A DNA stretch of 64,000 nt, taken from positions 152,385-216,384 of the forward strand of contig JBAXRK010000001.1 of NCBI GenBank assembly GCA_037131245.1, in the 5' to 3' direction. The translations under genes were made by a program, and so were the position numbers. The stretch comes from Candidatus Omnitrophota bacterium (lineage in GTDB: Bacteria; Omnitrophota; Gorgyraeia; Zapsychrales; Fredricksoniimonadaceae). Position 1 is the stretch's first letter. The number at the start of each line of letters is the position of its first letter. Positions 7,148-54,246 of this stretch are shown here, in pieces. The notes under the pieces were generated by a model. It saw only the letters and a program-made list of their open reading frames with translations. It did no database searches and was not told the DNA's origin.

Positions 7148-8263
7148 TTAAGCCTTCTTCTCCAGCTCGATGACCTGGATCTTCAAATGCTTGATCTCGT
7201 CTTCATATTTCCGGATGGTCTCATCCATGTGGATAGACTTGCGGAACTCTTCAAATTCTTTGCCCTCAGCGAAAGTGGCAATGGACTCCACCGCCTCCTT
7301 GGTCTTCTCGCCGAGCAGGTCGAGTTTCATTTTGCTTTCCTGGGCGCGCATGCGCACATTGCGCAGCGAATGCTTTTCGTCTTCCAGCGTCTTTTCCATG
7401 CGGGCGATCTCGCCCTCCGCGTTTCTCAGTTTCGCGATCCGCTCGTCAAAAGCCGGATACTCGGCTTTCACGCTTTCCAGCTTGCCCATCTCAAGCTCAA
7501 GTTTCCTGTACTCAAGTTCTTTAGCGGCCAGTTCACTGACTTTGGCGTCGAGCGCGGCTTTGGCCTTTGCCGCTTCCGCTTCTTTACCCGCCAGCTCGGC
7601 GTCCTTCTTAACCAGCGCGTCCTTGAACTTCGCGGCATCCGCGGATGCCTGCTGCAGTTCGCGGTCGAGCCGCTGGCATTCGCCGCTGATCCTCTGAAAT
7701 TCCTTTTCTTTCGACGCGATCTCTTCCGCTTTGGCCAGCGACGCCTGCTGCCCCTGCTGCTGCCCGGCCTGCAATTTTGCCAGTTCGGCTTTCAGCGTTT
7801 GCAGTTCCTGGTCTTTCTGGGTAGCCTCGCTCTTGAGCTTAAGGAAACGCTCATCGTAATCCTTATATTGCGCCGACTTGACGCCCTCGATCTTAAACTT
7901 GTTCTTTAAACCCTCGAGCTCGACGGAAAGAAGCTGCGCTTCCTGTTCCTTGATCATGAGTTCATTGGCCTTAACTTGCAACTCGATGGAACAGCGCTTG
8001 GCTTCTCCCGCCGCCTGCTGCACCTCGGCGTCCTTGCGGGCCGCTTCCGCGCTTTTCTGCTCAAGCTCCACTTTCCGCCGCTCGGCATCAACCGTCAGCA
8101 GGTCGATCTGTCGCTTGAATTCGATCGCCTCGGTATTGGCGGCGCTAAGAAGTTCCTCCGCCTTGGCCACTTCCTTATATAGGCGCACCACGTTCTTCAG
8201 GATGAAGAACAGCCCGCCAAAAAGGAAAACGATGTAAACAATTAGAATGATCGGACTCGACAT
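7148..8263 (-). CDS. Membrane-anchored long coiled-coil protein (mad-type coiled-coil class, tentative)
   Basis: N-terminal TM SPIILIVYIVFLFGGLFFIL. The remaining ~330 aa are heptad-like E/K/A/Q-rich sequence. Confidence 0.7.
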   Translation of the reverse strand: MSSPIILIVYIVFLFGGLFFILKNVVRLYKEVAKAEELLSAANTEAIEFKRQIDLLTVDAERRKVELEQKSAEAARKDAEVQQAAGEAKRCSIELQVKANELMIKEQEAQLLSVELEGLKNKFKIEGVKSAQYKDYDERFLKLKSEATQKDQELQTLKAELAKLQAGQQQGQQASLAKAEEIASKEKEFQRISGECQRLDRELQQASADAAKFKDALVKKDAELAGKEAEAAKAKAALDAKVSELAAKELEYRKLELEMGKLESVKAEYPAFDERIAKLRNAEGEIARMEKTLEDEKHSLRNVRMRAQESKMKLDLLGEKTKEAVESIATFAEGKEFEEFRKSIHMDETIRKYEDEIKHLKIQVIELEKKA

Positions 8264-8272
8264 TAGTATCCT

Positions 8273-8932
8273 TTAAATTTTCGGTTTCCCGGCCCTTAGC
8301 TTACGCAAACGCTCAAGCGTGGAATCCACGCCCTTGGTCTCTTTTTCTTCAACACCGACATCCTTCAGGTTGCTCGTCACCTGCTCCGCCGAATGGGCAT
8401 AGAGCGAGGAGAAATCCACCATCTCATATTCACCCGACTGCTTGAACTCCTCGATGCGCATGGCGCGCGCGGGGCCCGACAGGGTGCCGAGCTCCTTGAG
8501 CATGCCCGAAATACGGTCGGAAAGCTTGTCGCTCACCGCGTCAAGCGAGCCTTTAAGGATCTCGCCCATGTGCAACTTGAAATCATCAAGCGTCATGCCC
8601 GGCCCTGGCCCCGCAAGGGGTGCGCTTGGCGCAACAGGGGCGGGCGGCGGAATAATAGATGCCGGCACGGACGCTGTCGAGGTGATCTCCGGCACTACTA
8701 AACGGACCACCGGCGCCGGTGGCGGCGGCGGGACCCTCGGCTCCGCTTTTTTGCGCGCCAGGCGCTGATTGGTAATAGCGATCAAGCCGAGCAATTCATC
8801 GAGCGAATAATCAACGGTCGAGACTTCCTGGTCCAGGTCGCGGCGCCGCACATGCACATCCTCCAGCCGCCGGGCCAGGATGGGGACGGACGCGATCAGG
8901 TTATCAATATCGGTTGCAGCCGGTGCGCTCAC
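8273..8932 (-). CDS. Hypothetical protein with proline-rich linker
   Basis: The ORF track start at 8968 (non-ATG) overlaps the actin-like gene by 40 nt. An in-frame GTG at 8932..8930 overlaps the upstream TGA (GTGA) and is preceded by GGGGAGGAAAGA, so I prefer 8273..8932. PPPPPAP / PPPAPVAPSAP tracts. Confidence 0.6.
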   Translation of the reverse strand: MSAPAATDIDNLIASVPILARRLEDVHVRRRDLDQEVSTVDYSLDELLGLIAITNQRLARKKAEPRVPPPPPAPVVRLVVPEITSTASVPASIIPPPAPVAPSAPLAGPGPGMTLDDFKLHMGEILKGSLDAVSDKLSDRISGMLKELGTLSGPARAMRIEEFKQSGEYEMVDFSSLYAHSAEQVTSNLKDVGVEEKETKGVDSTLERLRKLRAGKPKI

Positions 8933-10452
8933 TCTTTCCTCCCCGCTTCGATCGCGTTGAACAGGCAACCCCGCACAACACTGGTGAACGGCTCTTTGGC
9001 GTGGACGACCCGGCCGACCTCAAAACCGAACTTGGCGGTTTTGACTTCCTCTTTGACCACATCGAGAAAACCGGGCACCATCGACGACCCGCCAGCGAAA
9101 ACAATATCCACCGGGTCTTTGAATCGCGGCGTACCGGTGCTGCGGCCGAGCACCTGGGACATGCTCTCGATCAAATAATGGACATAGTTGCGATAATAAA
9201 TGGCGATGGCTTCTTCTTCGCGGGTTTTGGGGGTCACAATGCTCATCCCGTGCTCTTTGATGGAACACACCCGGCTCATGGTAACGCCCAGCACTGTCGC
9301 CGCGCTTTTGTCGATCCAGTCGCCGCCGCGCGTGATCGAGAACGACAGGACCGGTACAGATTTGAACGACGCGCAAATGTTCACCATCCCCGCGCCGCAG
9401 GAAACGCCGATACCGGTAAAGTCCGACTCTTCCATCTCCGAGAGGACCACCGCGTAACCTTCATCGATGACCAGCGGCGTAAAGCCGATACTTTTTAGGA
9501 TCCCCTCAAAAACACCCCGGTGATAAATAGTATCCTGATCGCGGTCAATGGGCTTGGCCGGCACGGAGAAACAGCACACTTCGCCTGGAACGCGCGGCGT
9601 CCACATAATGTTCTGCGCCAGAAGTTTGATGATCGGGATGGACTCGGCTTCGGAGGGGTTCATGATCCCCATGTTCATGGTGCGCTGCGTTTCGCGCCCG
9701 AAAATGTCCGCGAGCTCGAGTGCCATCGTGCCCAGGACGAAAAGCTTATCGCCCATGGCCACATACTTGACCTTGAGTTTAGTCAGCAGTTCTTTGGTGG
9801 ATGTATCGCAGCGGACGGAAAGGAACGCATTGCGCTCATTTTTCACGAACACGCGCTTATTTTCAACTTCGCGCCCGGCCACCAGATAAGCGGTGCCAAG
9901 GTCGAGCCCAACCCCCAGGCGGACATCCGTGTGGGCTTGGGTCTCGTCGCCCGAATCAGGCAGGTTTCCGCTAGCTGCTTCATCGGCCTCCACCTCGATA
10001 CGGCCTTCCTCATTCTCGCCGATCTCGGGGACTTCTTCTTTAACGATCTCGACCGCGACAGGCCGCCGTTCAACCGGCTTCGGTTTTGGAGCCGGAGGGG
10101 GCGGAGGAGGTGGAGTCTTAACGGCTGTCCGCGCCGTGAACGCGGCACGTGCCGCGGCCAGGCGCTCGGCATTCGACATCTTCGGGCGTTCGGCCGGTTC
10201 TTCTTTTTCGAAGAAGCGCGGCGGCGGGCCGACATCCAACCCCGCGGCTTTGTCGCGCACATACTGGTTAATAGCCCGCAACTTGGCGTGCATTTCTTCA
10301 ACGGAAATATTCTTGGCGGACTGATACTGGGAGGGGCTAAGTTCTTGTCCGCGCTCGGGTTGCGCTCCTGCCGTAAGCGTGGAATACTGCTTGATCTTGT
10401 CGTTTATTTTCGAAAGGCGTTCCCGAACTTTTTGCAGTTCATCGTCGACCAC
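8929..10452 (-). CDS. Actin-like ATPase (MamK/Mad28 class) with ~175-aa N-terminal coiled-coil and proline-rich extension
   Basis: The C-terminal ~330 aa are colinear with the neighbouring 330-aa paralog. Motifs GLDLGTAYLV (phosphate 1), GIGVSCGAGMVNI (phosphate 2), IVFAGGSSMVPGF (adenosine). N-terminal linker PPPPPPPAPKPKP. Confidence 0.8.
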   Translation of the reverse strand: MVDDELQKVRERLSKINDKIKQYSTLTAGAQPERGQELSPSQYQSAKNISVEEMHAKLRAINQYVRDKAAGLDVGPPPRFFEKEEPAERPKMSNAERLAAARAAFTARTAVKTPPPPPPPAPKPKPVERRPVAVEIVKEEVPEIGENEEGRIEVEADEAASGNLPDSGDETQAHTDVRLGVGLDLGTAYLVAGREVENKRVFVKNERNAFLSVRCDTSTKELLTKLKVKYVAMGDKLFVLGTMALELADIFGRETQRTMNMGIMNPSEAESIPIIKLLAQNIMWTPRVPGEVCCFSVPAKPIDRDQDTIYHRGVFEGILKSIGFTPLVIDEGYAVVLSEMEESDFTGIGVSCGAGMVNICASFKSVPVLSFSITRGGDWIDKSAATVLGVTMSRVCSIKEHGMSIVTPKTREEEAIAIYYRNYVHYLIESMSQVLGRSTGTPRFKDPVDIVFAGGSSMVPGFLDVVKEEVKTAKFGFEVGRVVHAKEPFTSVVRGCLFNAIEAGRKE

Positions 10453-10470
10453 AGCCTTCAGCCTCTTTTA

Positions 10471-20556: not shown

Positions 20557-20581
20557 TGAACGAACTCTTTAGATGATTGAA

Positions 20582-40389: not shown

Positions 40390-40420
40390 AAAAAAATGCC
40401 ACGAATCCCGTTCGTGGCAT
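40389..40420 (-). terminator. Rho-independent terminator ending the upstream mam-like transcription unit
   Basis: Minus strand reads ATGCCACGAA-CGGGA-TTCGTGGCAT followed by TTTTTT. 10-bp perfect stem, 7 nt after the stop at 40427. Confidence 0.8.
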
Positions 40421-41029: not shown

Positions 41030-41044
41030 TCTTTCACCTGAGAA

Positions 41045-41224: not shown

Positions 41225-41230
41225 GAAGCT

Positions 41231-41241
41231 CCCCCCCCCCC
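41231..41241 (-). repeat. Homopolymer tract (11 G on the coding strand) serving as or overlapping the RBS of the small PLDc_N-type gene
   Basis: The plus strand shows 11 consecutive C, 6 nt upstream of the ATG at 41224. Confidence 0.85.
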
Positions 41242-41268
41242 GTTTTGTACTGTTTATTACCATTCTAG

Positions 41269-41316
41269 GTCTCAAAGGTCTGTCCTTTGAAAAACCCATG
41301 TAAGTCTCAAAAGTCT
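41269..41316. promoter_or_regulatory. Direct repeat GTCTCAAARGTCT x2 in the 89-nt gap (candidate operator / internal promoter)
   Basis: 41269..41281 gtctcaaaggtct and 41304..41316 gtctcaaaagtct. The minus strand also offers TTCAAA-18 nt-TAGAAT overlapping the first copy. Confidence 0.4.
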
Positions 41317-45033: not shown

Positions 45034-45858
45034 TTAATGACCCGCGCGCTTCTGCCCGCGCTCGAGGTCCATGGCTTTCTTAAAACAAACGATGGCATCA
45101 TTATGATTGCCGTTGCTCTCATAGAGGAACCCGAGCGCCTGGTAATACACCGCCTGGCGGGGCTCGACGTCGATCGCTTTCTTATAAAACTTCTTGGCTT
45201 CTTCCACATTCTCGGTCTTTTCGTAGCAGGTACCGAGATGATAATAACTATCAGCGTGCTCGTCATTAACTTCAATAGCCTTGAGAAGATAGGGGATCGC
45301 CTCCGCATACTCTTCAAGCACCACCAGGCAATCGCCAAGCTCGGTAATGATGTTCACGTCATTCTTGTCGAGCTTCTCGGCTTTTTTCAAATATTCAACG
45401 GCTTCCTTATGCTCTTCCATGTTCTTATGGCACATCGCCAGCATATAAAGAACGTCGACGTCGCCCGGATTCTCTTCGTCAAAAAGAAGGAACGCGTGCT
45501 GGGACTTCTCAAAATCGCCTTTTTCAAAATACTTATACCCCTGGTCCTTATTGAAAGACGCCTGGGTCTGCTCGGGCGCCACGAAAACGCTCTGGTAGGC
45601 GTTCGACAGTCCGTTAATGATGCGCTCGGCGGTTGACAGGGTCACATTGGTAGCCACTTTGAAATGATGGCCGATATCAGGAACCTTCTCGGCTCTGGCT
45701 TTTTTGGTCACCCGGGGATGACGGCGAACGGGCTTTTCCGCGGCGTCGGCAGCATCATCCGCTTCTTCAACCAACGTGCCCGCGTCGAGGTCACTCGACG
45801 TATCGGCCTCTTTGACCGCGTCTTCATTGTGTCTTTTGTGTTTCTTTAATTCTTCCAT
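45034..45858 (-). CDS. mamA: TPR-repeat protein (MamA-like) with acidic N-terminal extension
   Basis: Five or so 34-residue repeats from about aa 100 (e.g. AVEYLKKAEKLDKNDV, AIPYLLKAIEVNDEHADSYYHLGTCY, AKKFYKKAIDVEPRQAVYYQALGFLY). Confidence 0.75.
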   Translation of the reverse strand: MEELKKHKRHNEDAVKEADTSSDLDAGTLVEEADDAADAAEKPVRRHPRVTKKARAEKVPDIGHHFKVATNVTLSTAERIINGLSNAYQSVFVAPEQTQASFNKDQGYKYFEKGDFEKSQHAFLLFDEENPGDVDVLYMLAMCHKNMEEHKEAVEYLKKAEKLDKNDVNIITELGDCLVVLEEYAEAIPYLLKAIEVNDEHADSYYHLGTCYEKTENVEEAKKFYKKAIDVEPRQAVYYQALGFLYESNGNHNDAIVCFKKAMDLERGQKRAGH

Positions 45859-45872: not shown

Positions 45873-46784
45873 TTATTTCCTTGCCGCAGCCAGCGCAAGG
45901 GCCTTAGGAGTTAAATTTTCCTTACACGTGAACGCGACCGTCACTTCCTTGATCTGCGCGTATTTACGCATCAGGGCCTGACGGACTTCACGGGCGATCG
46001 CATGGCCTTCCTTGACCGTCCGTTTCGGGTCAATAATGATCTCAAGGTCGACCCAGGCATGCTGCCCCACGCGACGGGCATGGACATAATTAACGCCCAT
46101 CACCTGGCGGTACTTCATGACTTCCGCCTCGATGACCTTTTCCTTATCGCCGGGCAGGGCTTCATCGATGAGGTTCTTGAACGACTGCAACCCCAGCGTG
46201 ACCGCCGACTTGCCGATCATCAGGCCAACGAAGATCGCCGCCAGCGCGTCTATAATAGGAAAACCGATATTGGCCGCGAAAACGCCGAACAACACCGCGA
46301 TACTTGAAAGCATGTCGGAGCGGTTCTCCTGGGCATTCGCGATCATCGCCGGTGAATTCAGTTTTCTGCCCACGCAAAAGCCGTAAGACGACAAAATGAA
46401 GTTCGCCAGGATCGCGACCAAAGCCGCGAAGAACGCCGCCATGTGGGGCGCCTTGATCTCGCCGCTCACAATGACCGCGATGGCGTCGATCAGGATCATG
46501 CATGAAATACCAAAGAGCAGAATATACGCGAAAACCGCGCCGATGAATTCCGATTTGCCCAGGCCCCAGGGATATTTCTTATCATCCCGGTGGCTGGAGA
46601 GCTTGACCGTGATGATGACCATGAGCGTCGTCGCCACGTCGGTACCGCTGTGAAACCCGTCAGCCACCAGACCCTTCGACTTGGCGGCATAACCGATATA
46701 GATCTGAAAGATCGCAAGCGTCAAATTCCCAAGGAGGACGATCCAGGGAACGATCTTGCCGCATTTAACGCAACGTTCTTGCAT
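45873..46784 (-). CDS. mamB: Cation diffusion facilitator, MamB-like
   Basis: N-terminal CVKC, TM2 ADGFHSGTD, YPWGLGKSEF, TM5 NAQENRSD (compare the MamB NAWDNRSD as I recall it), CDF C-terminal fold. Confidence 0.8.
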   Translation of the reverse strand: MQERCVKCGKIVPWIVLLGNLTLAIFQIYIGYAAKSKGLVADGFHSGTDVATTLMVIITVKLSSHRDDKKYPWGLGKSEFIGAVFAYILLFGISCMILIDAIAVIVSGEIKAPHMAAFFAALVAILANFILSSYGFCVGRKLNSPAMIANAQENRSDMLSSIAVLFGVFAANIGFPIIDALAAIFVGLMIGKSAVTLGLQSFKNLIDEALPGDKEKVIEAEVMKYRQVMGVNYVHARRVGQHAWVDLEIIIDPKRTVKEGHAIAREVRQALMRKYAQIKEVTVAFTCKENLTPKALALAAARK

Positions 46785-46787: not shown

Positions 46788-47687
46788 TTATTCCGCCGGA
46801 AAATCCTGAATAAAGATATTACCGATGTACTTATCTTCGCTTCTAAGCAAAGCCCGGACCGACTGATTGATGTGCTTGGCCTCAACAACACTGAGCTCGG
46901 GGCTAAGCTGCAACCCGATATCGAGTACGATCTGCCGCCCTGTCTGGCGCGCCCGAACGTGTTTGATCTTGGCGATCCCCTTTACCGTCTCGACCGTGCG
47001 GTGGATCTTCTCCAGGTACTCCTCGGGCAGGTTCGTATCAACGATGCCTTTAAGCCCGCTTTTGAGGATCTCAAAACTGGCATGCAAAACGTGTGCGCAC
47101 TCGAAGATCGCGATGACCGGGTCCACCCAGTGCAACCCCATGCGGGTCACGACCACGCCGATCGCGACCAGGAGCGATGAAATAACGTCGATCTTGTTAT
47201 GTTCCGCGTGCGCTTTTAAGGAAGGGCTGTTAAGCTCCTGCCCGCTGCAATGCGAAAATTTATAAATGAACGCGCTGATGGTGGCCGACAGGATCGCCAC
47301 GAAAAACACCACCGAGTGCTGGACCACAAAGGTGCGCTTGGCCAGAACAATGAAAGAGCTCAAGATCAGCGCCAGCGTACCCAGGATCATGATGACGCTC
47401 ATCACGACTTGCGCGATGAACTCGATCTTGCCGTAGCCGTAAGGGTAGCGGTGATCGGCCGGCTTCTTGGAATACTTGACGCCGATAATGACTACGATCG
47501 AAGAAAGAACGTCACTCAAATTACAAAGCCCGCTGCCGATGAGCGCGCGGCTGCGGCCCATGAACCCCACGAACAACTTGAACGCCGCCAGGAACAGATT
47601 CGCGATAATGCCCGCGAAGATCGTCTTGCGCGCGCAAGCCTCGCATTTCTGTGAATTCTTTTTCTTTGGCTCGTTATTTGACGACAT
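46788..47687 (-). CDS. mamM: Cation diffusion facilitator, MamM-like
   Basis: N-terminal CEAC, TM2 GSGLCNLSD, YPYGYGKIEF, TM5 HAEHNKID, CDF C-terminal fold. Immediately upstream of the MamB-like gene. Confidence 0.75.
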   Translation of the reverse strand: MSSNNEPKKKNSQKCEACARKTIFAGIIANLFLAAFKLFVGFMGRSRALIGSGLCNLSDVLSSIVVIIGVKYSKKPADHRYPYGYGKIEFIAQVVMSVIMILGTLALILSSFIVLAKRTFVVQHSVVFFVAILSATISAFIYKFSHCSGQELNSPSLKAHAEHNKIDVISSLLVAIGVVVTRMGLHWVDPVIAIFECAHVLHASFEILKSGLKGIVDTNLPEEYLEKIHRTVETVKGIAKIKHVRARQTGRQIVLDIGLQLSPELSVVEAKHINQSVRALLRSEDKYIGNIFIQDFPAE

Positions 47688-47962
47688 TACGCCTCATCTT
47701 CGAACAACTCGCCATCATCCTCTTCCGCCGCCACCGCCTTGGCCTTGCGGTTCATCCTTGACCCGAAATGGACCATCATCCAGAACATATTGCTGGCGCC
47801 AATGACATAAGAGACGGCAATAATAATGATCAGCCCGCACTGGCGGCCCTTGAAGAACGGGATCCAGATCCTGACCGGGTCAAGGTTCTCAAAAACGAAC
47901 ATCCCCATGAACAGGGCGGCCAGCAGGAAAGCGATGATCTTAAGTATCAGTTTGATGTTCAT
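47687..47962 (-). CDS. Small membrane protein, LapA-domain-like, acidic tail
   Basis: Two TM helices with the FENLDPVRIWIPFF loop; tail EEDDGELFEDEA. Confidence 0.5.
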   Translation of the reverse strand: MNIKLILKIIAFLLAALFMGMFVFENLDPVRIWIPFFKGRQCGLIIIIAVSYVIGASNMFWMMVHFGSRMNRKAKAVAAEEDDGELFEDEA

Positions 47963-49155
47963 AGCGCCGGTTTCAAGATGATATGACAGTTATTGCATTT
48001 GCCCCGGAATTCATGGGGAGCAACCGCGCCTTTAGTGATCGGCGGCGGCGTGGGCAAAATATCGCCCGCGTCCGTGGGAAGCTGGCCGCCGGTGATCATG
48101 ATGATATGACAGGCCGTGCACGGCTTACCCTGCTGGCGCTTGCGATGGGGCGCGAGCGCGCCGGGCTTGATCGGCTGGGCCGCTTCATTCTGCGAAAAGC
48201 CCAGCGTTCGGTCGGAAACAAACGTGAATTCCATCATCCGCCCGCGGCGGTTAACCTGCACCCGGGCCTTTTTGGCATTCTTGACCCGGCGGGTCGCCTC
48301 GGTGAACGCCGCGAGGTCAGGTGTGGAAAAATGTTCAACGCCGATCACCATGTCGCCGGCCAGAATTCCGGACTCGGCAGACTCAAGCGAAATCTCGTCG
48401 ACCAGCAAACCCTTCGTGTCGGGCGCGATGCCGAATTCTTTAGCCAACTCAGGTACCAATGGAATAAGCTCCATGCCCAGCCAATGGCCTTCAACAAGTT
48501 CTTTATGCGCCGCGCCCTGTTCTTTGGGCGAAGGAAGCATGATGGTCGGAGCCCGGCGGTTTACAACGGGCGCTGCCGCGGCACCGGCTTCCTGGACCAG
48601 CGCGACCGGGGCCAAGGCCGCGTCACCAAAAGTCGTTTCCTTCATCGCGACCGGCGCGCCTTCCGTCGTCTGAGCAACGGGCGTGGCCAGGCCATGGCCG
48701 GTCGTACCCGGATCGATATTAAGCATTTTCTTCATCGTATCGTGCATGCTGCCGGTGCTCTGCATCGTAATGAACAAGGGCTGGCCTTGACGGAGAATAT
48801 CAAGAAGAACGCCGTTACTGACATCGGTGACCTTGGTCACTTTAAGAAAATCATTGATCGTAAGCGTCGGCTTATTGTTGATCGATTTAATAACGTCGCC
48901 GCCGCGCACGCCCGACGCGAATGCCGGGTCTTCACACCAGTTGACCACCACGCCCTTCTCGTCTTTGGGAATGCTGAACTCCATCTGCAGCGCCGGCGTC
49001 ATGTTCGACACCGTCATGCCCGACCACTCGGCGTCGCCCGCCCCGATGTGCATGAGCGCGGCCGTGATAAAGAGGCCCAAAATGATGAGCAGGGTCAAGA
49101 GCAAACCCCTCTTCATTTTTTTATAGCGGTATTCCTGTAATTGCGGCTCAAGCAT
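47959..49155 (-). CDS. TM + two PDZ + two magnetochrome motifs (MamP / MamE-C-terminal-like)
   Basis: PDZ1 WSGMTVSNMTPALQMEF...GDVIKSINN. PDZ2 WLGMELIPLVPELAKEFGI...GDMVIGVEH. PCTACH and HEFRGKCNNCH. Confidence 0.85.
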   Translation of the reverse strand: MLEPQLQEYRYKKMKRGLLLTLLIILGLFITAALMHIGAGDAEWSGMTVSNMTPALQMEFSIPKDEKGVVVNWCEDPAFASGVRGGDVIKSINNKPTLTINDFLKVTKVTDVSNGVLLDILRQGQPLFITMQSTGSMHDTMKKMLNIDPGTTGHGLATPVAQTTEGAPVAMKETTFGDAALAPVALVQEAGAAAAPVVNRRAPTIMLPSPKEQGAAHKELVEGHWLGMELIPLVPELAKEFGIAPDTKGLLVDEISLESAESGILAGDMVIGVEHFSTPDLAAFTEATRRVKNAKKARVQVNRRGRMMEFTFVSDRTLGFSQNEAAQPIKPGALAPHRKRQQGKPCTACHIIMITGGQLPTDAGDILPTPPPITKGAVAPHEFRGKCNNCHIILKPAL

Positions 49156-49167: not shown

Positions 49168-49431
49168 TTACTCTTTGGCGATCGTTTTGGGATTAAGGTT
49201 GATGTGTTCGACGCCGACATTACATTCTTTGCAAACCCAGAGCTCGCGCTTGGCGGTGCTCATGTAAATACCGATAATGACCAGCGGAATACCCACCACC
49301 ATACCGACCCAGAACAGGGTCATCAGGATACCGGCCAGGATAATGAACCCGGCGGCCTTGCGGTTATAACGCGGACCGTTAAAAAGCTGCATTTCACCGT
49401 TACAATGTGAGCACTTGATCGCTTTAGCCAT
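49168..49431 (-). CDS. Membrane protein with split zinc ribbon
   Basis: CSHC...(two TM helices)...CKEC. 87 aa. Confidence 0.55.
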   Translation of the reverse strand: MAKAIKCSHCNGEMQLFNGPRYNRKAAGFIILAGILMTLFWVGMVVGIPLVIIGIYMSTAKRELWVCKECNVGVEHINLNPKTIAKE

Positions 49432-49440
49432 ATACTCCTC

Positions 49441-49674
49441 TTAATTTTTTCCCGCGATCAGGTCGTCGATCGCTTTTTCTTTGTCCGCGTCAAAAACTTC
49501 GGTCGTTTGTTCGGTCTGCACCGGACGGGACGACTTCACCAAGGGTGCGCTTTTCACTTCAGGTGTTGCTTCGGCCTTCGGGGCTTTGTCTTTTTTATTT
49601 TTACCCGTGACTGATAATCCAATGCCTAACGCTGCTGCAATAACCGTGAATGCCCAAATGGACAGTGGCTCCAT
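49441..49674 (-). CDS. Small single-TM protein
   Basis: 77 aa. TM IWAFTVIAAALGIGLSV followed by a charged tail. Confidence 0.5.
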   Translation of the reverse strand: MEPLSIWAFTVIAAALGIGLSVTGKNKKDKAPKAEATPEVKSAPLVKSSRPVQTEQTTEVFDADKEKAIDDLIAGKN

Positions 49675-49686: not shown

Positions 49687-51300
49687 TTATTTGATCGCCA
49701 TGTGGGCGACGTTCGGATCCTGCATGCCATTATTCTGCGCGACTTCATTCTCGACGGCCTGTTGCTGCATTGGAACATTCTGCATCGCCACGGGTTGAGC
49801 CTGTACTGCCTGCGCCGGCGCGATCTGATGGCAATTGGAACAAACACCGCGATAAGCGTGCGGCATCGTCGCATTAGCGGCGATCGTGATATCAGGTTTT
49901 ACCGTATGACAATTTTCGCAAACACCCCGGAACTGGTGAGGCATCACCGCATCGCGAAAGATCGGCGGAGCACTGTTAGGCACGGGATTCGCCACCGGAG
50001 CGTTTTGGACCATGGCGATCCGCGACGCCGGATTGACCCGCTTCATGATCTGCCCGCAATTGGGACAACGCGGAAATTCATTCATGCCCTGCTCGGAATG
50101 CATCAACCAACCGCAATTGGGACATTTAAAACCATTGGTCATGTCCGGATTCGGGCTGAAAAAATTCGCCTGAGTGCCCATCATCATGGCCTGCTGACCC
50201 ATGGCCTGCTGAGCCATCGCTTGCTGAGCCATCGCTTGCTGACCGAAGGCCTGATTCTGCATCTGCATTTCCGGCTGTTCAACGAACGGGTTCACGAGAC
50301 GATTCTGATTCTGGGCCTGCATATCAAGCGCCATCGACCCGCCGCAATTCGGGCACTGTGGAAACCCATCGCCTTGCTGGCTACTTTTCATGCGCCAGTT
50401 ACAGATAGGACAAACATACGCCCGCTGGCCCCAACCGAACCAGCCGGCTTGCATTGCTCCCGCGCCCCCCTGGGCCATGGCTTGCTGTTGGGCCAACTGC
50501 TGCTGAAGGATCTGCTGCTGATACAAATAACCCGGGCCGTTGCCGTTATGAAGCATGCCGATGCCTTGAAAACCACCGGGGAGAGGACAAGTCGGTTGCT
50601 GAGCCTGCATCATATAATTCATCGGCATATTCTGCATGCCCATGCCTTGCTGCATCATATTTCCCTGCATGCCCATCGGCATATTCGCTGCCATCCCGCC
50701 GCCCATCCCCCCTACGGGGGCCATGCCTTGCATCTGCATTTGCTGTTGAACAGGAATTTGCTGGGCTTGCCCGGGCATCGGAGAGGCCGGAATTCTCGCC
50801 TGACGATATAAACTGATCACTTTCTGCGCCCGGCCCTGATACCCGCCGAACACCCTGATGCCGAACTGCGAAAGCGTATTGTAGGTCTGCTGATCCACAC
50901 TGCCGACGATGACCGCTTCCTCGCCCTTGCTGGCGATCAAATACGTCATCTGCTGGCTGGGCCCCTGGCCGAAATAAGGGTTCTTAACCACTTCCATCAA
51001 TTTCTTGTTGAGCGGATTGACGACCAGAAAATAACGGGCCTCGGACAAGGTCGGCGCGACAGGCGCCGCCAGCGAACGGCCGCCGGTCGCGATAACGATC
51101 ATCCCGCAAGCCGGGTTACCTTTGGCCGTGCCGGTCGATTCCGCCGAGAACAGGGCATATGTCCCGACGATCAAGATGAGCACGATCGCGGAAAAAATGA
51201 AGATAACGTTCAGGTCGGTATCCTTGAACCGTTCTTCGACCTTTGCCAGGATCGACTTAAGATCAATATTGAACGCGGCGCCCTCAGACTTCTTAGCCAT
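49687..51300 (-). CDS. Mosaic protein: TM + NifX/NafY-like domain + Met/Gln-rich low-complexity region + two zinc ribbons + two magnetochromes
   Basis: LSEARYFLVVN...AVIVGSVDQQTYNTLSQFGIRVF. aa 171-380 are Q/M/G-rich with QQAMAQQAMAQQAMGQQAM. CPIC..CPNC and CPNC..CPNC. HQFRGVCENCH and HAYRGVCSNCH. Confidence 0.8.
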   Translation of the reverse strand: MAKKSEGAAFNIDLKSILAKVEERFKDTDLNVIFIFSAIVLILIVGTYALFSAESTGTAKGNPACGMIVIATGGRSLAAPVAPTLSEARYFLVVNPLNKKLMEVVKNPYFGQGPSQQMTYLIASKGEEAVIVGSVDQQTYNTLSQFGIRVFGGYQGRAQKVISLYRQARIPASPMPGQAQQIPVQQQMQMQGMAPVGGMGGGMAANMPMGMQGNMMQQGMGMQNMPMNYMMQAQQPTCPLPGGFQGIGMLHNGNGPGYLYQQQILQQQLAQQQAMAQGGAGAMQAGWFGWGQRAYVCPICNWRMKSSQQGDGFPQCPNCGGSMALDMQAQNQNRLVNPFVEQPEMQMQNQAFGQQAMAQQAMAQQAMGQQAMMMGTQANFFSPNPDMTNGFKCPNCGWLMHSEQGMNEFPRCPNCGQIMKRVNPASRIAMVQNAPVANPVPNSAPPIFRDAVMPHQFRGVCENCHTVKPDITIAANATMPHAYRGVCSNCHQIAPAQAVQAQPVAMQNVPMQQQAVENEVAQNNGMQDPNVAHMAIK

Positions 51301-51312: not shown

Positions 51313-51930
51313 TTATTTAACGACCGGACCGTACTGGAACGCCTGCCCCAACACCGGTGAACCTAATTGCCATGTCCCCTTGTTCGGCCCGAACAGCGGA
51401 CCATACTGATATTCAAAAGGGACCGTGATATATAAATTTTCTTTACCGCGGAACACGTCGAGCAGAATGCCGTTGGTAAAACGCGTATTCTGCGCCGCGT
51501 CCACAAACTCGCGGCTGTTACGCACCGGATGGCGGTTAAGCGACACGATCACGTCGCCCATCTTGACGCCGTTGCGGAACGCTTCCTGCGTGCCCTGATC
51601 GACCACGAACATCCCCTTGATACGGCCGGGGATCTTGAATTCCTTGCGCAGCATCGGCGACACCGGCGCGATCTCCATGCCCAGCCACACCAGCGTATCG
51701 GTCTTTTTAAAGACCTGCGGCTTCTGCGCTTTCATCTCGGCCGTTTCCGGCAGCACTTCGGTCGCCCTTAAATACTCAACGCCCCAGGTCAATGTCAAAA
51801 TAACACCCGTCACGATCGCCGCCAGCACCCAGGGTTTCTCGCGCGCGAATTCCACCGTTTGCTTGATGACCTTCTGCCAAGGAGCAAACTCTTTTTCCGC
51901 CGCCTTGTGGTGTGTTTTTTTCTGTGTCAT
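51313..51930 (-). CDS. Membrane-anchored single-PDZ protein
   Basis: TM WVLAAIVTGVILTLTWGV. PDZ WLGMEIAPVSPMLRKEFKIPGRIKGMFVVD...GDVIVSLNR. Confidence 0.7.
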   Translation of the reverse strand: MTQKKTHHKAAEKEFAPWQKVIKQTVEFAREKPWVLAAIVTGVILTLTWGVEYLRATEVLPETAEMKAQKPQVFKKTDTLVWLGMEIAPVSPMLRKEFKIPGRIKGMFVVDQGTQEAFRNGVKMGDVIVSLNRHPVRNSREFVDAAQNTRFTNGILLDVFRGKENLYITVPFEYQYGPLFGPNKGTWQLGSPVLGQAFQYGPVVK

Positions 51931-53324
51931 TGCAACCTCACCAGGACTTCGTCGTACTTGCCGTTGCGGTAGATCCGCACGTTCACATTATCGCCCGCCT
52001 TGAAATGGGTCACGACCTTCGGGATATCATTGGTCTCCACGATCGGCACACCGGCGACCGACATCACGATGTCGCCGCGCATGATGCCGGCCATCGCCGC
52101 GGGAGAACCGTCAAGGATCCGATTGACCAGCACGCCCTGACCGAGCGGAATACCATACTGCTTGGAAATAATAGGATCGACCGCCATGACTTCGATACCG
52201 AAATGCACCGGCACCGGGCCCTGCTGTAAATGGCTGAACTTGGTGAGCGCCACATTGACCATACCCTTCTGATCGAGGGGAACGGTATAGCTCTTGCCAA
52301 GGTTAGCCGATAAGAAATCTTTGCAATTATTGATGGGAATAGCGAAACCCGTGCCGCTGAACACGCCGGTCGGCGCGTAGATGGCGGTATTGATCCCGAT
52401 GACCTCGCCCTTCATATTGACCAGCGGACCACCGGATGAGCCGCGGTTAATGGACGCGTCGGTCTGGAACAGATCTTTGTAGCGGACGCCATCAATGACC
52501 ATCGATTTGCGGTTGCCGCTGATAATACCGCTGGTGACCGTCTGCTCGATCCCGAAGGGGCTGCCCACCGCCACCACATAATCGCCCACCTGGGTCCAGC
52601 TGGAATCGCCAATTTTGGCTTCCGGGAAAAGAACATCCGCGCCCGTGATCTTGAGGATCGCCAGGTCCGAATTCGCATCCTGCGCCACGATCTGGGCCGG
52701 ATAATCGCGCGCGGGCGAACCGAACACGGTAACCATGATGTCGGTGGCGTCCTGCGTCACATGATAATTCGTCAGGATATAGCCGCGCTCGTCAACAAAA
52801 ACACCGCTGCCGATCCGTTCAAAACCTTTATTGGCAATAAATTTATCGATCACGCCATCGAAAGGCGGCACGAACTTGAGATTCTGCGCATCGGGTACCA
52901 CTTTGCGCGGAGCACGCACAACCCGTTGAGCGTGAATATCGCAGACGGTCGGAATAATGCCGTTGACCGCATCCTTAAGCGAATTCTGAAAACCGCCGGC
53001 ATTGTCAACCTGCTGAGCAACCAACTGCATACCGCCATTAGGCGTGGCCTTGGTAAGCGCCGCGCGCGCGTAGTTAGGATCGTTCCACTGAGCGGCAGGT
53101 GGCGTGACAGTCGCGGCAGGCATAACACCCTTAGGGAATGAAGGCTCGCCTTGGATCGGAGACGTCACCTTGGGAGGCTCGGGTGTTTCCAGTTCTAACG
53201 GAATGAAGATCTCGTTCCGTTTGAGAACGACCCACATGACCGACATGACCGAAACGCCAATAAGCCCGTAAACCCAGGGCTTGATCGACTGATTACAAAA
53301 TTCGTCATTGTGATCTTGAGGCAT
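51927..53324 (-). CDS. mamE: HtrA/DegP-type serine protease with one PDZ (MamE-like protease part)
   Basis: TM VYGLIGVSVMSVMWVVL. Triad contexts ILTNYHV, SDLAILKI, GSSGGPLVN. C-terminal PDZ. No CXXCH in this polypeptide. Confidence 0.85.
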   Translation of the reverse strand: MPQDHNDEFCNQSIKPWVYGLIGVSVMSVMWVVLKRNEIFIPLELETPEPPKVTSPIQGEPSFPKGVMPAATVTPPAAQWNDPNYARAALTKATPNGGMQLVAQQVDNAGGFQNSLKDAVNGIIPTVCDIHAQRVVRAPRKVVPDAQNLKFVPPFDGVIDKFIANKGFERIGSGVFVDERGYILTNYHVTQDATDIMVTVFGSPARDYPAQIVAQDANSDLAILKITGADVLFPEAKIGDSSWTQVGDYVVAVGSPFGIEQTVTSGIISGNRKSMVIDGVRYKDLFQTDASINRGSSGGPLVNMKGEVIGINTAIYAPTGVFSGTGFAIPINNCKDFLSANLGKSYTVPLDQKGMVNVALTKFSHLQQGPVPVHFGIEVMAVDPIISKQYGIPLGQGVLVNRILDGSPAAMAGIMRGDIVMSVAGVPIVETNDIPKVVTHFKAGDNVNVRIYRNGKYDEVLVRLQ

Positions 53325-53750: not shown

Positions 53751-53779
53751 GTGATTCCCCTTTCCTTGCGTTTATTAGA

Positions 53780-54157
53780 TTAAACTTTTTTCTCGCTACC
53801 CGGCTTAACCATCTTATGGGCAAAAGCCGCGATGACCTTACCTGATGCGAAAGCACCCCTTGAAACCATGCTATCGATCTTGGCCTTCTGTTTAACCAGA
53901 AAAGCGCCAACCACAGCCGGCTCTTTAACCGCCTCAACTGCCTTTTGGACAGCATTGGGCACAAGGTCAACAGCCGCCTGATCGCTGCTATGACTCTTTT
54001 TAACTAAGTCTAATACTGCTTTACGGGGGATGCGTTGATGGCCGCCAAGGGTGGCGGTGGATTCAAGTTTATGCTTCTTGACCCAGTTAAGAACGGTGAA
54101 ACGGGTGACGTGACAGATCTTGGCGGCTTCAGTAGTTGTTAAGTAATCGGTATGCAT
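53780..54157 (-). CDS. Excisionase/MerR-type HTH regulator, first gene of the cluster
   Basis: YLTTTEAAKICHVTRFTVLNWVKKHKLESTATLGGHQRI is paralogous to the HTH at 39909..40340. Confidence 0.7.
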   Translation of the reverse strand: MHTDYLTTTEAAKICHVTRFTVLNWVKKHKLESTATLGGHQRIPRKAVLDLVKKSHSSDQAAVDLVPNAVQKAVEAVKEPAVVGAFLVKQKAKIDSMVSRGAFASGKVIAAFAHKMVKPGSEKKV

Positions 54158-54217
54158 TCTTGCTGAGCCCTAAGTGGTTATCAATTAAACAATTAAGTGA
54201 GCGTTTTAAGATTTTCG

Positions 54218-54246
54218 AAGTATAAAGATTTGATAAAATTATGTCA
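54218..54246 (-). promoter_or_regulatory. Strong sigma70-type promoter candidate for the mam-like operon
   Basis: Minus strand reads TTGACAtaattttatcaaatcttTATACT (17-nt spacer) inside a 268-nt AT-rich gap, about 60 nt upstream of the ATG at 54157. Confidence 0.6.

Follow-up and report, generated by a model that had tools for sequence, protein, structure and literature searches.

Does the window (the whole 64,000-nucleotide stretch of DNA analysed here, from a Candidatus Omnitrophota MAG) carry a genuine magnetosome gene cluster (MGC), and does its unusual parts list mark an undescribed variant or an unrecognised magnetotactic lineage, as a sequence-only reading had proposed? Judged by its sequence, the 47-kb region is a genuine MGC, apparently intact, of a type already described in magnetotactic Omnitrophota, and it is therefore a new example rather than a new kind. 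Positions 7148-54157 very probably constitute an Omnitrophota-type MGC of an uncultured Candidatus Omnitrophota, inherited vertically and lying in the same neighbourhood as in published magnetotactic MAGs; to our knowledge, no magnetotactic Omnitrophota exist in culture. The direct evidence consists of domain content, motifs, synteny, paralogy, and purifying selection, and from the genes by which the cluster is known here we infer magnetosome production by the source cell as well as every biochemical role. Two points are mildly new, namely, I) a second module of ~7.4 kb with its own HTH regulator, which is paralogous to part of the main operon and has diverged from it, and II) an efflux and regulator block of ~9 kb (TolC, RND, Fur), which looks like a passenger.

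The cluster comprises four blocks, with nearly all genes on the minus strand and a GC content of 0.54-0.55 that is uniform over all blocks. The boundaries proposed earlier (7148..54246) are reasonable, as genes at each end have positional homologues in related clusters.

Composition of the core operon

Families were assigned by Pfam and NCBIfam profile searches of the ORFs in the window. Block 1 (54157 to 40427) is a mamAB-like operon that ends at a hairpin (this and the promoter-like site by consensus scan only):

53780..54157, minus: HTH_17 (MerR/excisionase-type) regulator at the operon head (Pfam HTH_17, 38 bits); homologue at the same position in loci L002-L005, L008, L010, and L011
53580..53750, minus: MamI-like 56-aa protein, two membrane helices (NCBIfam MamI sole match, 44.8 bits, E 8e-12; equivalog cutoff 80); 80-94% identical across related loci
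51927..53324, minus: MamE-like HtrA protease (MamE-Nter type), one PDZ domain (Pfam Trypsin_2 and PDZ_2)
51313..51930, minus: membrane-anchored PDZ protein (Pfam PDZ_1/PDZ_2; top NCBIfam match the PDZ region of MamP, 45.7 bits)
49687..51300, minus: FmpB-like redox protein, 537 aa (Pfam MCR, 53.5 bits)
49168..49674, minus: two small membrane proteins (87 and 77 aa) without a match in family searches; the 87-aa ORF keeps its position in eight loci (60-75% identity)
47959..49155, minus: MamP, 398 aa, with a membrane anchor, two PDZ-like regions, and two magnetochrome sites (NCBIfam MamP top match, 210 bits, E 5e-62; Pfam MCR, 44 bits)
47687..47962, minus: 91-aa protein, two membrane helices, invariably upstream of mamM (position kept in 10/10 loci, 50-79% identity); no match in family searches
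46788..47687, minus: MamM, CDF iron transporter (NCBIfam CDF_MamM top, 246 bits vs 117 for FieF)
45873..46784, minus: MamB, CDF iron transporter (NCBIfam CDF_MamB top, 238 bits)
45034..45858, minus: MamA, TPR protein (NCBIfam MamA top, 138 bits, E 2e-40)
44196..45017, minus: MamQ, LemA family (NCBIfam MamQ sole match, 102 bits; Pfam LemA)
42378..44180, minus: PDZ-fused MamN-like permease of the CitMHS/ArsB superfamily (NCBIfam MamN top, 258 bits, spanning the full profile; Pfam CitMHS and PDZ_2)
41331..42359, minus: TauE-family membrane protein corresponding to MamO's C-terminal half (Pfam TauE, 184 bits; top NCBIfam match MamO, profile positions 373-648, 39 bits)
40427..41299, minus: PLDc_N small membrane protein (84 aa) and 200-aa PDZ protein, the last genes of the operon (Pfam); positions kept in four and eight loci, respectively
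40396..40420, minus: terminator-like hairpin with a 10-bp stem and a T run behind it
40392-40364, minus: promoter-like site after the hairpin

For MamI, MamM, MamB, MamA, MamQ, MamP, and the MamN-like permease, the best NCBIfam match is a Mam-specific model. Every such match scores under its own equivalog cutoff; these cutoffs appear to be tuned to close orthologues, the matches here being from a distant phylum. On the HtrA protease, NCBIfam MamE (256 bits) ranks second, just behind a generic degP/HtrA model; the H/D/S triad is intact (motifs TNYHV, SDLAIL, and GSSGG), and Pfam and a motif scan found no magnetochrome domain in it. Profile searches of the window found no MamK-family actin (Pfam and NCBIfam) and no recognisable MamL. 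The parts named in the sequence-only reading (MamI-like protein, HtrA protease, MamM/MamB pair, TPR, LemA, permease, and TauE proteins, two actin-like ATPases) were confirmed by Pfam/NCBIfam, and its seven PDZ domains were located in six proteins, i.e., one in each of five plus two PDZ-like regions in MamP.

Haem-binding proteins

The earlier description of the haem motifs holds exactly: CXXCH occurs exactly twice in each of three minus-strand ORFs (36713-37426, 47959-49155, and 49687-51300) and is absent from the other 66 ORFs of the gene set. Five sites follow the pattern HxxRGxCxxCH, and four of these come after a Pro; the sixth, which is the first in the 398-aa protein, is the looser GKPCTACH. 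All three proteins exceeded the gathering score of the Pfam magnetochrome model PF18509 (30.4 bits) with 39.6, 44.0, and 53.5 bits (E 4e-10 to 2e-14); a single N-terminal membrane helix is predicted for each. The FmpB-like protein (NCBI name 'magnetochrome domain-containing protein', MEI6437211.1) consists of a membrane anchor, a NifX-like domain (Pfam Nitro_FeMo-Co, 26.1 bits, slightly below the cutoff of 26.3), a Q/M-rich linker, two zinc ribbons, and two magnetochrome haem sites. Its pairing of NifX with magnetochrome resembles FmpB of Desulfovibrio magneticus RS-1 (PMC4287615).

Iron segment and mad-like genes

Block 4 (23676 to 7148) is a feoB-mad operon:

18956..23676, minus: iron uptake and regulation segment with a 113-aa protein, an AmaP-like 246-aa protein, FeoB (20582-22585), a FecR-domain protein (19699-20556), and a DtxR+FeoA regulator (18956-19708), by family matches; collinear in L003-L006 and L016
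13068..18959, minus: three HEAT-repeat proteins (17766-18959, 15257-17152, and 13605-14726; Pfam HEAT_2/HEAT; Mad23-like at the domain level) and five interleaved small/unknown ORFs; collinear in L016, partly in L017 and L020
12305..13063, minus: ParA/MinD-type ATPase, Mad29-like at the domain level (Pfam AAA_31, 166 bits); 89% identical in L016 and L017
11491..12327, minus: coiled-coil protein with SMC-like heptads, Mad24/25/26-like at the domain level (weak coiled-coil/SMC matches); 68-71% identity in L016 and L017
10471..11463, minus: actin-like ATPase, 330 aa, Mad28-type (Pfam PF25216, 266 bits)
8929..10452, minus: second actin-like ATPase, 507 aa (PF25216, 267 bits; motif GVSCGAGM)
7148..8968, minus: 231-aa protein and 371-aa coiled-coil protein at the end of the cluster; L016 and L017 have positional homologues (35-47% identity)

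Family matches confirm the FeoB, DtxR+FeoA, ParA-like, and two actin-like proteins. The 330-aa actin-like protein reaches only 26.7 bits with NCBIfam MamK (cutoff 400), and its phosphate-2 motif, GISGGGGM, fits the SxGxG form reported for Mad28 (PMC10653835). The 507-aa protein is its paralogue (42% identity) with a 180-aa Pro/Ala/Glu-rich N-terminal extension; positional homologues measure 463-482 aa. Profile searches gave no family for the 231-aa protein and weak SMC-type matches for the 371-aa protein. By domain content, one motif, and position, on which the likeness to the Mad proteins of RS-1 and BW-1 rests, FeoB resembles Mad17/30 and the ParA-like ATPase Mad29 (PMC9840458), the HEAT/coiled-coil proteins resemble Mad23/25/26 (PMC12748827; Mad23-26 range at the domain level), and the actin-like pair is Mad28-type.

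Accessory module and efflux block

The terminator-like hairpin and promoter-like site set block 1 apart from block 2 (32915..40340), an accessory module of ten genes (Pfam/NCBIfam matches):

39909-40340, minus: second HTH_17 regulator
39201-39908, minus: NifX+Cys4 protein
38848-39297, minus: zinc-ribbon protein
37885-38799, minus: NapH-like polyferredoxin, resembling Mad6
37445-37939, minus: PDZ protein
36713-37426, minus: zinc-ribbon+magnetochrome protein
35817-36842, minus: MamM-like CDF
34915-35820, minus: MamB-like CDF
34006-34914, minus: PAS protein
32915-34048, minus: CDF-NifX fusion

Its paralogous content relative to block 1 comprises a split NifX/zinc-ribbon-magnetochrome pair, a PDZ protein, and MamM-like and MamB-like CDFs, to which the NapH-like ferredoxin, a PAS sensor, and the CDF-NifX fusion are extra. 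Five CDFs (the MamM/MamB pair and three more) and three NifX-like domains, as counted earlier, were confirmed. The stretch from the HTH gene to CDF341 is common to L002 and L009 and partly to L007; the module is shared with nHGRbin18 and nDJH6bin5, and its CDF pair occurs as well in a distant Omnitrophota MGC (L022). For the genes from NifX235 to MCR237, dN/dS is 0.06-0.14.

Block 3 (32929 to 23722) contains:

32099-32929, plus: Bro-N protein
31405-31878, plus: Fur
31277-31362, both directions: divergent promoter-like pair (consensus scan)
30928-31242, minus: DUF134 protein
30302-30931, minus: SAM methyltransferase
28571-30034, minus: TolC
25360-28578, minus: RND pump
25169-25360, minus: YgaP-like 63-aa protein
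23722-25092, minus: porin-like 456-aa protein (sequence features only)

Fur, TolC, and RND were verified by family matches. In the supposed porin, a signal peptide is accompanied by a coiled coil and by a beta-rich region with ...LILKF as its last residues; no HMM match backs the assignment. L003-L006 and L008 lack the block between their PDZ200 and 113-aa genes; TolC/RND is present on the nHGRbin18 MGC contig, in the examined parts of which Fur and Bro-N have no match. Since the TolC-RND-60aa unit also has a non-MGC setting in another Omnitrophota genome (L014), TolC/RND is probably no magnetosome component, and the block (Fur, TolC, RND, porin-like) is probably a passenger. Of the 'non-canonical additions' reported earlier, the genes are present, but most have mad/fmp precedents in deep-branching magnetotactic bacteria (MTB).

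Synteny and selection

A search of public genomes, as proposed earlier, found the same gene order in ten loci of Omnitrophota MAGs (nHGRbin18, nDJH2bin18, nDJH13bin20, nXXbin4, nDJH6bin5, nDJH2bin13, UBA10174, MBPbin6, and Ki2-D4_bin-0675), published in 2018 and 2020 and partly from magnetically enriched cells, e.g., MBPbin6 (PMC5955933). Collinearity extends gene by gene over the whole mamAB-like operon into the ApbE/ion-channel flank, and a second run covers the feoB-mad operon and continues into the sensor-kinase flank; lineage and architecture were therefore already recognised. MamB is 92% identical to that of nHGRbin18 (77-92% over the ten loci), and MamP matches MEI6437208.1, from a Candidatus Omnitrophota MAG, at 100% identity.

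The claim of an intact mam+mad-type MGC stands: no ORF in the cluster is disrupted, and core and accessory genes compared with those of nHGRbin18, the closest relative, give dN/dS values of 0.04-0.22, close to those of the housekeeping genes on the flanks (0.07-0.11); all these values are rough because dS is >= 1, near saturation.

Alternative explanations

It is very unlikely that the cluster is an undescribed variant or stems from an unrecognised magnetotactic lineage. The full combination (accessory module plus Fur, Bro-N, and TolC/RND between the two operons) was found complete in none of the loci compared, and NCBI annotates this MamP as a 'hypothetical protein', so the source MAG has perhaps not been recognised as magnetotactic. 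However, published MAGs show the same gene order in the core and mad operons, the accessory module, its CDF pair, and the TolC/RND block recur as described above, and magnetotactic Omnitrophota are on record: four Omnitrophica MGCs are alike in gene content and order (PMC5955933), 20 Omnitrophota MTB genomes have been reported (PMC7602337), and the phylum is the fourth largest among catalogued MTB genomes (PMC12805115). The lineage half of the proposal is largely refuted. A silent or relic cluster, with the genes present and magnetosomes not made, is very unlikely. Knowledge from genes alone, the lack of MamK-family and MamL-like genes in the window, and the ~9-kb non-magnetosome block that splits the cluster would fit it; against it stand intact ORFs throughout, purifying selection across a divergence with dS >= 1, a conserved catalytic triad and 6/6 haem sites, and the recovery of related clusters from magnetically enriched cells (PMC5955933).

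The left half (7148-18959) could instead be a general cytoskeletal or cell-shape module of the PVC group that merely adjoins the magnetosome genes, which is considered unlikely. Homologues of the 330-aa actin-like protein number 2126, and many are Planctomycetota proteins of ~60% identity; yet the best ~58 of the 2126 are Omnitrophota-type (66-91% identity) before Planctomycetota-type ones begin, a number similar to that of close MamP relatives and far below that of the housekeeping RND pump. Two inspected Planctomycetota homologues lie in non-MGC neighbourhoods, and non-magnetotactic Planctomycetota relatives possess a MamK-like actin named 'saltatorellin' (bioRxiv 10.1101/817700), but the Planctomycetota loci share the actin gene only, with no HEAT, ParA, or coiled-coil genes in common. 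The entire HEAT-to-actin operon of L020 and L021 is directly downstream of PBP2-RodA cell-wall elongation genes and not beside mam genes, although the two samples also have a mamAB-like operon (L022/L023). At least five contigs are apparently common to the MamP and actin-like matches, and the domain set mirrors the chain-organisation network of RS-1 (PMC12748827). The left half is read here as part of the MGC.

Predicted roles

Following the literature on Magnetospirillum and D. magneticus RS-1, MamI, MamQ, and MamB, possibly with the small two-helix proteins, would shape and populate the magnetosome membrane, while an active MamE-type protease and the stand-alone PDZ proteins would sort and process membrane proteins. 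MamM/MamB would import Fe(II), the MamN-like permease and TauE protein would serve ion handling and nucleation, MamP and the NifX-magnetochrome protein would set the Fe(II)/Fe(III) ratio, and MamA would coat the organelle. The iron segment of block 4 would provide iron uptake and regulation; feoB is reported to be located within MGCs as a rule (PMC7602337). Assembly and positioning of the crystal chain would fall to the HEAT, ParA-like, coiled-coil, and two Mad28-type actin-like proteins; in RS-1, Mad20/23/25/26/28 organise chains (PMC12748827), and Mad28 forms filaments (PMC10653835). As to the mineral type (magnetite or greigite), the earlier caution that it cannot be read from sequence agrees with the reported grouping of Omnitrophica Mam proteins with the greigite set, though magnetite is assumed (PMC7449369). 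The accessory module would probably add iron transport and redox capacity; its NapH-like ferredoxin resembles Mad6, and RS-1 fmpB and mad6 mutants form fewer particles (PMC4287615).

Gene content of the mamAB-like operon

Pfam and NCBIfam scans covered almost every minus-strand ORF of 7148-54157 as well as several flanking ORFs, the minus strand holding nearly all long ORFs between 158 and 63906. Judged by its sequence, the window contains a real and intact magnetosome gene cluster (MGC) of a known kind, namely, the Omnitrophota type. Homologues of mamA, mamB, mamE, mamI, mamM, mamP, and mamQ are clustered within 44196-53750 and make up a mamAB-type core. The profile-HMM check on the ORFs that an earlier, sequence-only reading had proposed was run with these Pfam and NCBIfam models, and Mam-specific models came out on top for MamA, B, I, M, P, and Q.

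Table. Mam identities in the mamAB-like operon (NCBIfam scores)
53580-53750, minus: MamI; sole match, 44.8 bits
51927-53324, minus: MamE; 256 bits, second after the generic HtrA model
47959-49155, minus: MamP; top match, 210 bits
46788-47687, minus: MamM; top match, 246 bits (FieF 117)
45873-46784, minus: MamB; top match, 238 bits
45034-45858, minus: MamA; top match, 138 bits
44196-45017, minus: MamQ; sole match, 102 bits
42378-44180, minus: MamN-like, PDZ-fused; top match, 258 bits
41331-42359, minus: TauE protein; top match is the C-terminal half of MamO (profile 373-648), 39 bits

All Mam scores lie below the equivalog cutoffs, which are apparently tuned to close orthologues, and the window belongs to a phylum distant from Magnetospirillum (Alphaproteobacteria), from whose mamAB operon the NCBIfam Mam models derive. 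MamI, E, M, B, A, Q, P, and N of that operon, together with the TauE half of MamO, are nevertheless the best or near-best matches in the window, and the magnetochrome chemistry would be common to both. In contrast to Magnetospirillum MamE, which includes magnetochrome and a second PDZ domain, the MamE of the window has neither, and these are carried on separate proteins. No MamK, MamL, MamJ, or mms6/mamGFDC-type genes were found in the window, which has mad-type genes instead. The small or uncharacterized ORFs (77, 87, 91, 113, 204, and 231 aa, and the porin-like 456-aa protein) yielded no MamL and no other Mam or Mad identity in permissive Pfam and NCBIfam scans. The only trypsin-like protease has an intact His/Asp/Ser triad and scores 256 bits with MamE versus 99 bits with MamO. 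The stand-alone TauE protein and separate protease resemble a split arrangement, presumably the 'MamO-Cter' named in deep-branching magnetotactic bacteria (MTB).

Magnetochrome proteins

CXXCH motifs occur twice each in the products of 36713-37426 (237 aa), 47959-49155 (398 aa, MamP), and 49687-51300 (537 aa), and in no other ORF of the gene set. Of the six haem sites, five follow the pattern HxxRGxCxxCH, with a Pro before four of these, and the sixth is GKPCTACH. The three proteins match the magnetochrome family PF18509 with 39.6, 44.0, and 53.5 bits, all above the gathering score of 30.4, as is expected in an MGC; the haem motifs noticed in the sequence-only reading are thus borne out in detail, in number and in family. 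Each protein has one predicted N-terminal hydrophobic helix, as expected of membrane-anchored proteins with lumen-facing haem domains. In the public annotation, MEI6437208.1, which is 100% identical to MamP, is listed as 'hypothetical protein WCO69_00485' (Candidatus Omnitrophota MAG, 247,114-bp contig), and the 537-aa protein (MEI6437211.1) is named 'magnetochrome domain-containing protein'.

The 537-aa protein combines the magnetochrome domain (53.5 bits) with a Nitro_FeMo-Co domain (26.1 bits; cutoff 26.3), and no PDZ domain was detected in it. At the domain level, this is the combination of magnetochrome and NifX/NifB-type domains known from FmpB of Desulfovibrio (Solidesulfovibrio) magneticus RS-1, mutants of which form fewer particles (PMC4287615). 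Compared by description, the NifX domain is N-terminal here and C-terminal in FmpB (PMC4287615). The protein also has a Gln/Met/Gly/Ala-rich low-complexity linker of about 200 residues and two CPxC...CPNCG zinc ribbons; given the single N-terminal anchor, these would share the membrane side of the haem sites.

Conservation among Omnitrophota

A MamB scan with one genome per species returned ten loci, all from Omnitrophota metagenome-assembled genomes (MAGs), at 77-92% identity: nHGRbin18, Ki2-D4_bin-0675, nDJH2bin18, nDJH13bin20, nXXbin4, nDJH6bin5 (two contigs), UBA10174, nDJH2bin13, and MBPbin6. Sequence of the window is also present in run SRR12676967. When every window protein was compared with the related loci by tblastn, the order was collinear gene by gene through the mamAB-like operon (HTH, mamI, mamE, PDZ, NifX-magnetochrome, small ORFs, mamP, 91-aa ORF, mamM, mamB, mamA, mamQ, mamN-like, TauE, PLDc_N, PDZ), and it continued into the flanking ApbE gene, the ion-channel gene, and two more flanking genes. 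On the other side, the genes around the actin-like gene of nDJH13bin20 have the order of the window from 22585 down to 158, i.e., feoB, FecR, DtxR/FeoA, HEAT, an ORF of unknown family, HEAT, two small ORFs, HEAT, two small ORFs, ParA-like, coiled-coil, actin-like, long actin-like, a 206-aa ORF, and a coiled-coil ORF, followed by two-component genes. In a distant Omnitrophota locus (L022), the order is kept at 29-64% identity.

MGCs of Omnitrophota MAGs (MBPbin6; nHGRbin18, nDJH13bin20, nDJH2bin18, nDJH6bin5; UBA10174) thus agree with the window in phylum, gene order, and flanks, and their core proteins are 60-94% identical to those of the window at the amino-acid level. Magnetically enriched cells were the source of MBPbin6 (Lin et al. 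2018, PMC5955933), and 20 Omnitrophota MTB genomes were reported by Lin et al. 2020 (PMC7602337), with whose naming scheme the JADF* MAGs (nHGRbin18, nDJH13bin20, nDJH2bin18, nDJH6bin5) comply. Omnitrophota rank fourth among the phyla of a curated MTB genome database (PMC12805115). The gene content and order described in 2018 and 2020 were found in the window by comparison with the MamB-scan loci (L002-L011) and two further loci (L016, L017), both flanks included. The collinearity of the cluster and both flanks indicates that the cluster and its chromosomal position were inherited within a recognised magnetotactic group. The synteny search in public MAGs that had been suggested earlier therefore found what it looked for, and it is mainly this collinearity that contradicts the accompanying idea of an unrecognised magnetotactic lineage; an undescribed MGC variant, the other suggestion, is at odds with the match to the Omnitrophota MGCs described in 2018 and 2020.

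Relative to nHGRbin18, dN/dS is 0.04-0.22 for the mam and accessory genes (0.06-0.14 for the accessory genes from the NifX protein to the magnetochrome protein) and 0.07-0.11 for flanking housekeeping genes; with dS of at least 1 the ratios are rough, yet clearly far below 1.

To our knowledge, no magnetotactic member of the Omnitrophota has been cultured, and the mineral made is still debated. Most Omnitrophota MGCs were taken as Fe3O4-type by Lin et al., with two genomes containing both types (PMC7602337), whereas Uzun et al. found Omnitrophica Mam proteins to group with the greigite set and noted that the magnetite assumption rests on the contaminated SKK-01 genome (PMC7449369). The earlier caution against reading the mineral from the sequence stands in view of this conflict.

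The window leaves the current understanding of magnetosome formation unchanged. It adds one long, uninterrupted Omnitrophota MGC with both flanks, and it can serve as a reference for cluster boundaries, for its modular build, in which a terminator-like hairpin and a variable middle lie between two operons, and for telling genuine magnetosome genes from passengers. What remains of interest is limited: a partial paralogue of the main operon that appears to be old and separately transcribed, an efflux block that is probably a passenger within the cluster, and a pair of apparently Mad28-type actins in 64 kb of sequence where no MamK-family gene was found.

In nDJH6bin5, two contigs (L007, L009) each carry 91aa-mamM-mamB-mamA-mamQ-mamN-like-TauE-PDZ-HTH, and no mamI, mamE, or mamP was found in the 4-9 kb upstream; this could mean that a partial cluster was duplicated or that the bin combines two strains. 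The right flank of the window (57054-61012) encodes a CHASE2-SpoIIE phosphatase, a Fic/DOC protein, and a DUF6976 protein (438 bits).

The variable middle and the accessory module

Five relatives (L003-L006, L008) have homologues of ORFs 23335-23676 and 22582-23322 directly after the final PDZ gene of their mamAB-like operon, so that 23722-40340 of the window (16.6 kb) is extra by comparison with them. Among the related Omnitrophota MAGs compared, only nHGRbin18 and nDJH6bin5 share parts of this stretch.

40396-40420, minus: strong terminator-like hairpin (10-bp stem and T run)
40364-40392, minus: promoter-like site, directly after the hairpin
32915-40340: accessory module
23722-32929: efflux/regulator block

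The hairpin and the promoter-like site, located between the last PDZ gene and a second HTH_17 gene, suggest two separate transcription units. The accessory module consists of, in order, the second HTH_17, a NifX-plus-Cys4 protein, a zinc-ribbon protein, a NapH/MauN-type polyferredoxin, a PDZ protein, the 237-aa zinc-ribbon-magnetochrome protein, two CDFs, a PAS protein, and a CDF-NifX fusion. The polyferredoxin has NapH/MauN as its top NCBIfam match (56.5 bits), two Pfam Fer4_5 domains, and three predicted membrane helices; at the domain level, it is a NapH-type polyferredoxin membrane protein inside an MGC, as Mad6 is. Judging by the similarities within the window, the accessory module is a diverged partial paralogue of the main operon.

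Table. Paralogue pairs between the accessory module and the main operon (within-window BLASTP)
237-aa protein, residues 129-229, and 537-aa protein, residues 391-493: 52%
NifX protein and N-terminal half of the 537-aa protein: collinear, 23-42% in two segments
Second HTH and head HTH: 52%
CDF 34915-35820 and MamB: 28%
CDF 35817-36842 and MamM: 24%

nHGRbin18 and one nDJH6bin5 contig share the module from its HTH as far as the first CDF, and the other nDJH6bin5 contig contains an HTH, a magnetochrome protein, and PAS. In the distant locus L022 (MamB 48%), the two CDFs recur in this order with 32% and 47% identity, which argues that at least this pair is old and not a recent gain.

It is improbable that the module is more than redundant and forms a separately regulated second biomineralisation unit, a reading that draws on its own HTH regulator, the PAS sensor, the split NifX/magnetochrome pair, the NapH-like ferredoxin, and three extra CDFs. 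If true, the module might let an Omnitrophota sub-lineage shift iron flux or redox poise according to conditions, which might alter crystal size, number, or even the mineral. On this reading, the CDF pair seems to be about as old as the core, and it may be an ancestral part of the Omnitrophota cluster that was lost in several lineages. Genomes with both Fe3O4-type and Fe3S4-type MGCs (e.g., Omnitrophota nS315_bin20/24, PMC7602337) likewise contain a second diverged set, which in the window comprises HTH, NifX, magnetochrome, PDZ, and two CDFs beside the main operon. Unlike in those genomes, the second set here is partial (without MamA, Q, I, E-protease, and P) and arranged in tandem inside a single cluster, with no sign of a link to another mineral.

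The efflux/regulator block encodes Bro-N and Fur on the plus strand and DUF134, a methyltransferase, TolC, an RND pump, a YgaP-like 63-aa protein, and a porin-like 456-aa protein on the minus strand. The methyltransferase, DUF134, TolC, RND, 60-aa, and 446-aa genes are also present on the MGC contig of nHGRbin18. In another Omnitrophota genome, TolC-RND-60aa is located among thioredoxin, sulfur-carrier-type, and other unrelated genes, and the pump has hundreds of relatives at 63-71% identity, many of those named being Omnitrophota. A dedicated magnetosome role for RND/TolC was rejected as the leading reading because of this non-MGC copy and these numerous pumps, and the block is read here as a probable passenger within the cluster. 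Composition gave no sign of recent transfer of the middle blocks, GC being 0.54-0.55 in all blocks; Rfam and tRNA scans of the whole window found nothing, and hence no tRNA-linked island signature.

The TolC and RND genes overlap or abut in three genomes (window 25360-30034, L013 8614-13219, L014 8614-13204), without a gene for a membrane-fusion (HlyD-type) adaptor between them or next to them, and a YgaP-like protein of 60-63 aa is conserved downstream of the pump. With its signal peptide, short coiled coil, and beta-rich stretch terminating in LILKF, the 456-aa protein (23722-25092) looks like an outer-membrane barrel, for which HMM support is absent (OMP_b-brl E = 0.36); nHGRbin18 has a 55% identical homologue behind the pump. 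A divergent promoter-like pair (31277-31362) is located between DUF134 (minus strand, 11/12 consensus matches) and Fur (plus strand), and Fur may thus control the DUF134-methyltransferase-TolC-RND unit. The Bro-N gene (32099-32929, plus) converges on the CDF-NifX gene with a 15-base overlap at the gene end. Bro-N domains are typical of antirepressors of phages and mobile elements, and Bro-N and Fur may mark a small mobile insertion. Neither had a match in the stretches of the relatives that were read, which lie outside nHGRbin18 JADFZK010000010.1 16519-31606.

The feoB-mad half and its actin-like proteins

The left half of the cluster encodes FeoB (308 bits), three HEAT proteins, two coiled-coil proteins, and a ParA/MinD ATPase, adjacent within the MGC. 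Iron transport has been proposed for Mad17 and Mad30, Mad24 resembles SMC proteins, and ATPase domains occur in Mad22, 25, 27, and 29 (PMC9840458). Mad23 combines HEAT repeats and coiled coils and, together with Mad20, 25, 26, 28, and MamK, organises the chain of RS-1 (PMC12748827). The FeoB, HEAT/coiled-coil, and ATPase proteins of the window fit Mad17/30, Mad23-26, and Mad29 in domain content, the level at which they were compared. RS-1, which belongs to another phylum and has mam, mad, and fmp genes (PMC4287615, PMC12748827), follows a similar protein logic at the domain level: split MamE/MamO functions, a NifX/NifB-magnetochrome protein (FmpB), NapH-like Mad6, FeoB-type Mad17/30, HEAT/coiled-coil Mad23/25/26, actin-like Mad28, and the ATPase Mad29. 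The suggestion that the cluster carries many non-canonical additions thus survives only in part, as NifX, polyferredoxin, FeoB, HEAT, coiled-coil, ParA-like, and actin-like proteins have domain-level precedents.

Two actin-like proteins of 330 and 507 aa match Pfam PF25216 with 266-267 bits and share 42% identity; the longer one is extended at its N-terminus by 180 aa rich in Pro, Ala, and Glu, and its positional homologues have 463-482 aa. With the NCBIfam MamK model they score 26.7 and 19.8 bits against a cutoff of 400, and Pfam scans of the window found no MamK-family/MreB_Mbl-type protein. Mad28 has an SxGxG phosphate-2 motif versus DxGxG in MamK (PMC10653835); both window proteins have Ser in this motif (GISGGGGM in the 330-aa and GVSCGAGM in the 507-aa protein), and ParA-like, coiled-coil, and HEAT genes adjoin them, so that both agree with Mad28 in fold, motif, and mad neighbourhood. 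While RS-1 has both MamK and Mad28, the window has no MamK-family actin. Concatenated trees use a 'MamK' for Omnitrophica (PMC7449369); one paralogue may therefore be labelled MamK in other work, or a genuine mamK may be located beyond the window, past which the source contig continues. As a testable lead, Omnitrophota clusters may depend on a pair of Mad28-type actins and have no MamK-family protein.

Among PDB sequences, the 330-aa protein had no match and hence no close relative, and the 507-aa protein had weak matches to 5LJW, 5JYG, and 5LJV ('Actin-like ATPase', E 5e-4 to 4e-3), which we take to be MamK structures. No solved Mad28 structure for comparison was found in the PDB searches with both proteins.

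The left half could alternatively be a general cytoskeletal module that is not specific to magnetosomes. The 330-aa protein has 2126 homologues, many of those listed being Planctomycetota proteins of about 60% identity; the actin is the only gene that two such Planctomycetota loci have in common with the window, no magnetosome genes being nearby, and in another Omnitrophota population the whole HEAT-to-actin operon is located directly downstream of PBP2 and RodA. This explanation is nonetheless given a low probability: linkage to mam genes was found on at least five contigs, judged by contigs of equal size carrying MamP and actin matches, close Omnitrophota relatives gave similar numbers for MamP and actin, and the left half matches the RS-1 chain-organisation network (PMC12748827). 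A magnetosome-specific role is thus the favoured reading of the left half.

The 113-aa (unknown family) and 246-aa ORFs (22582-23676) are conserved directly upstream of feoB in L003-L006; L008 has the pair, with no feoB match in the stretch read. The 246-aa membrane protein (22582-23322) reaches 54.7 bits with NCBIfam AmaP (alkaline-shock membrane anchor; cutoff 55), the sole near-threshold match in the permissive scans. In L020 (1-14013) and L021, Omnitrophota loci from JGI 3300053785 and 3300054976, a HEAT-ParA-coiled-coil-2x actin operon follows PBP2 and RodA, and the mamAB-like operon of the two samples is on a separate contig (L022, L023); this may be a split cluster placed beside cell-wall elongation genes.

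The Planctomycetota actin genes (L018 4803-5834, L019 10001-11032) have NDK, NFACT, and peptidase genes as neighbours, and their Mad28-like products recall the 'saltatorellin' actin of Saltatorellota. As close relatives from non-magnetotactic bacteria, they provide a second testable lead, which may bear on the origin of Mad28-type actins.
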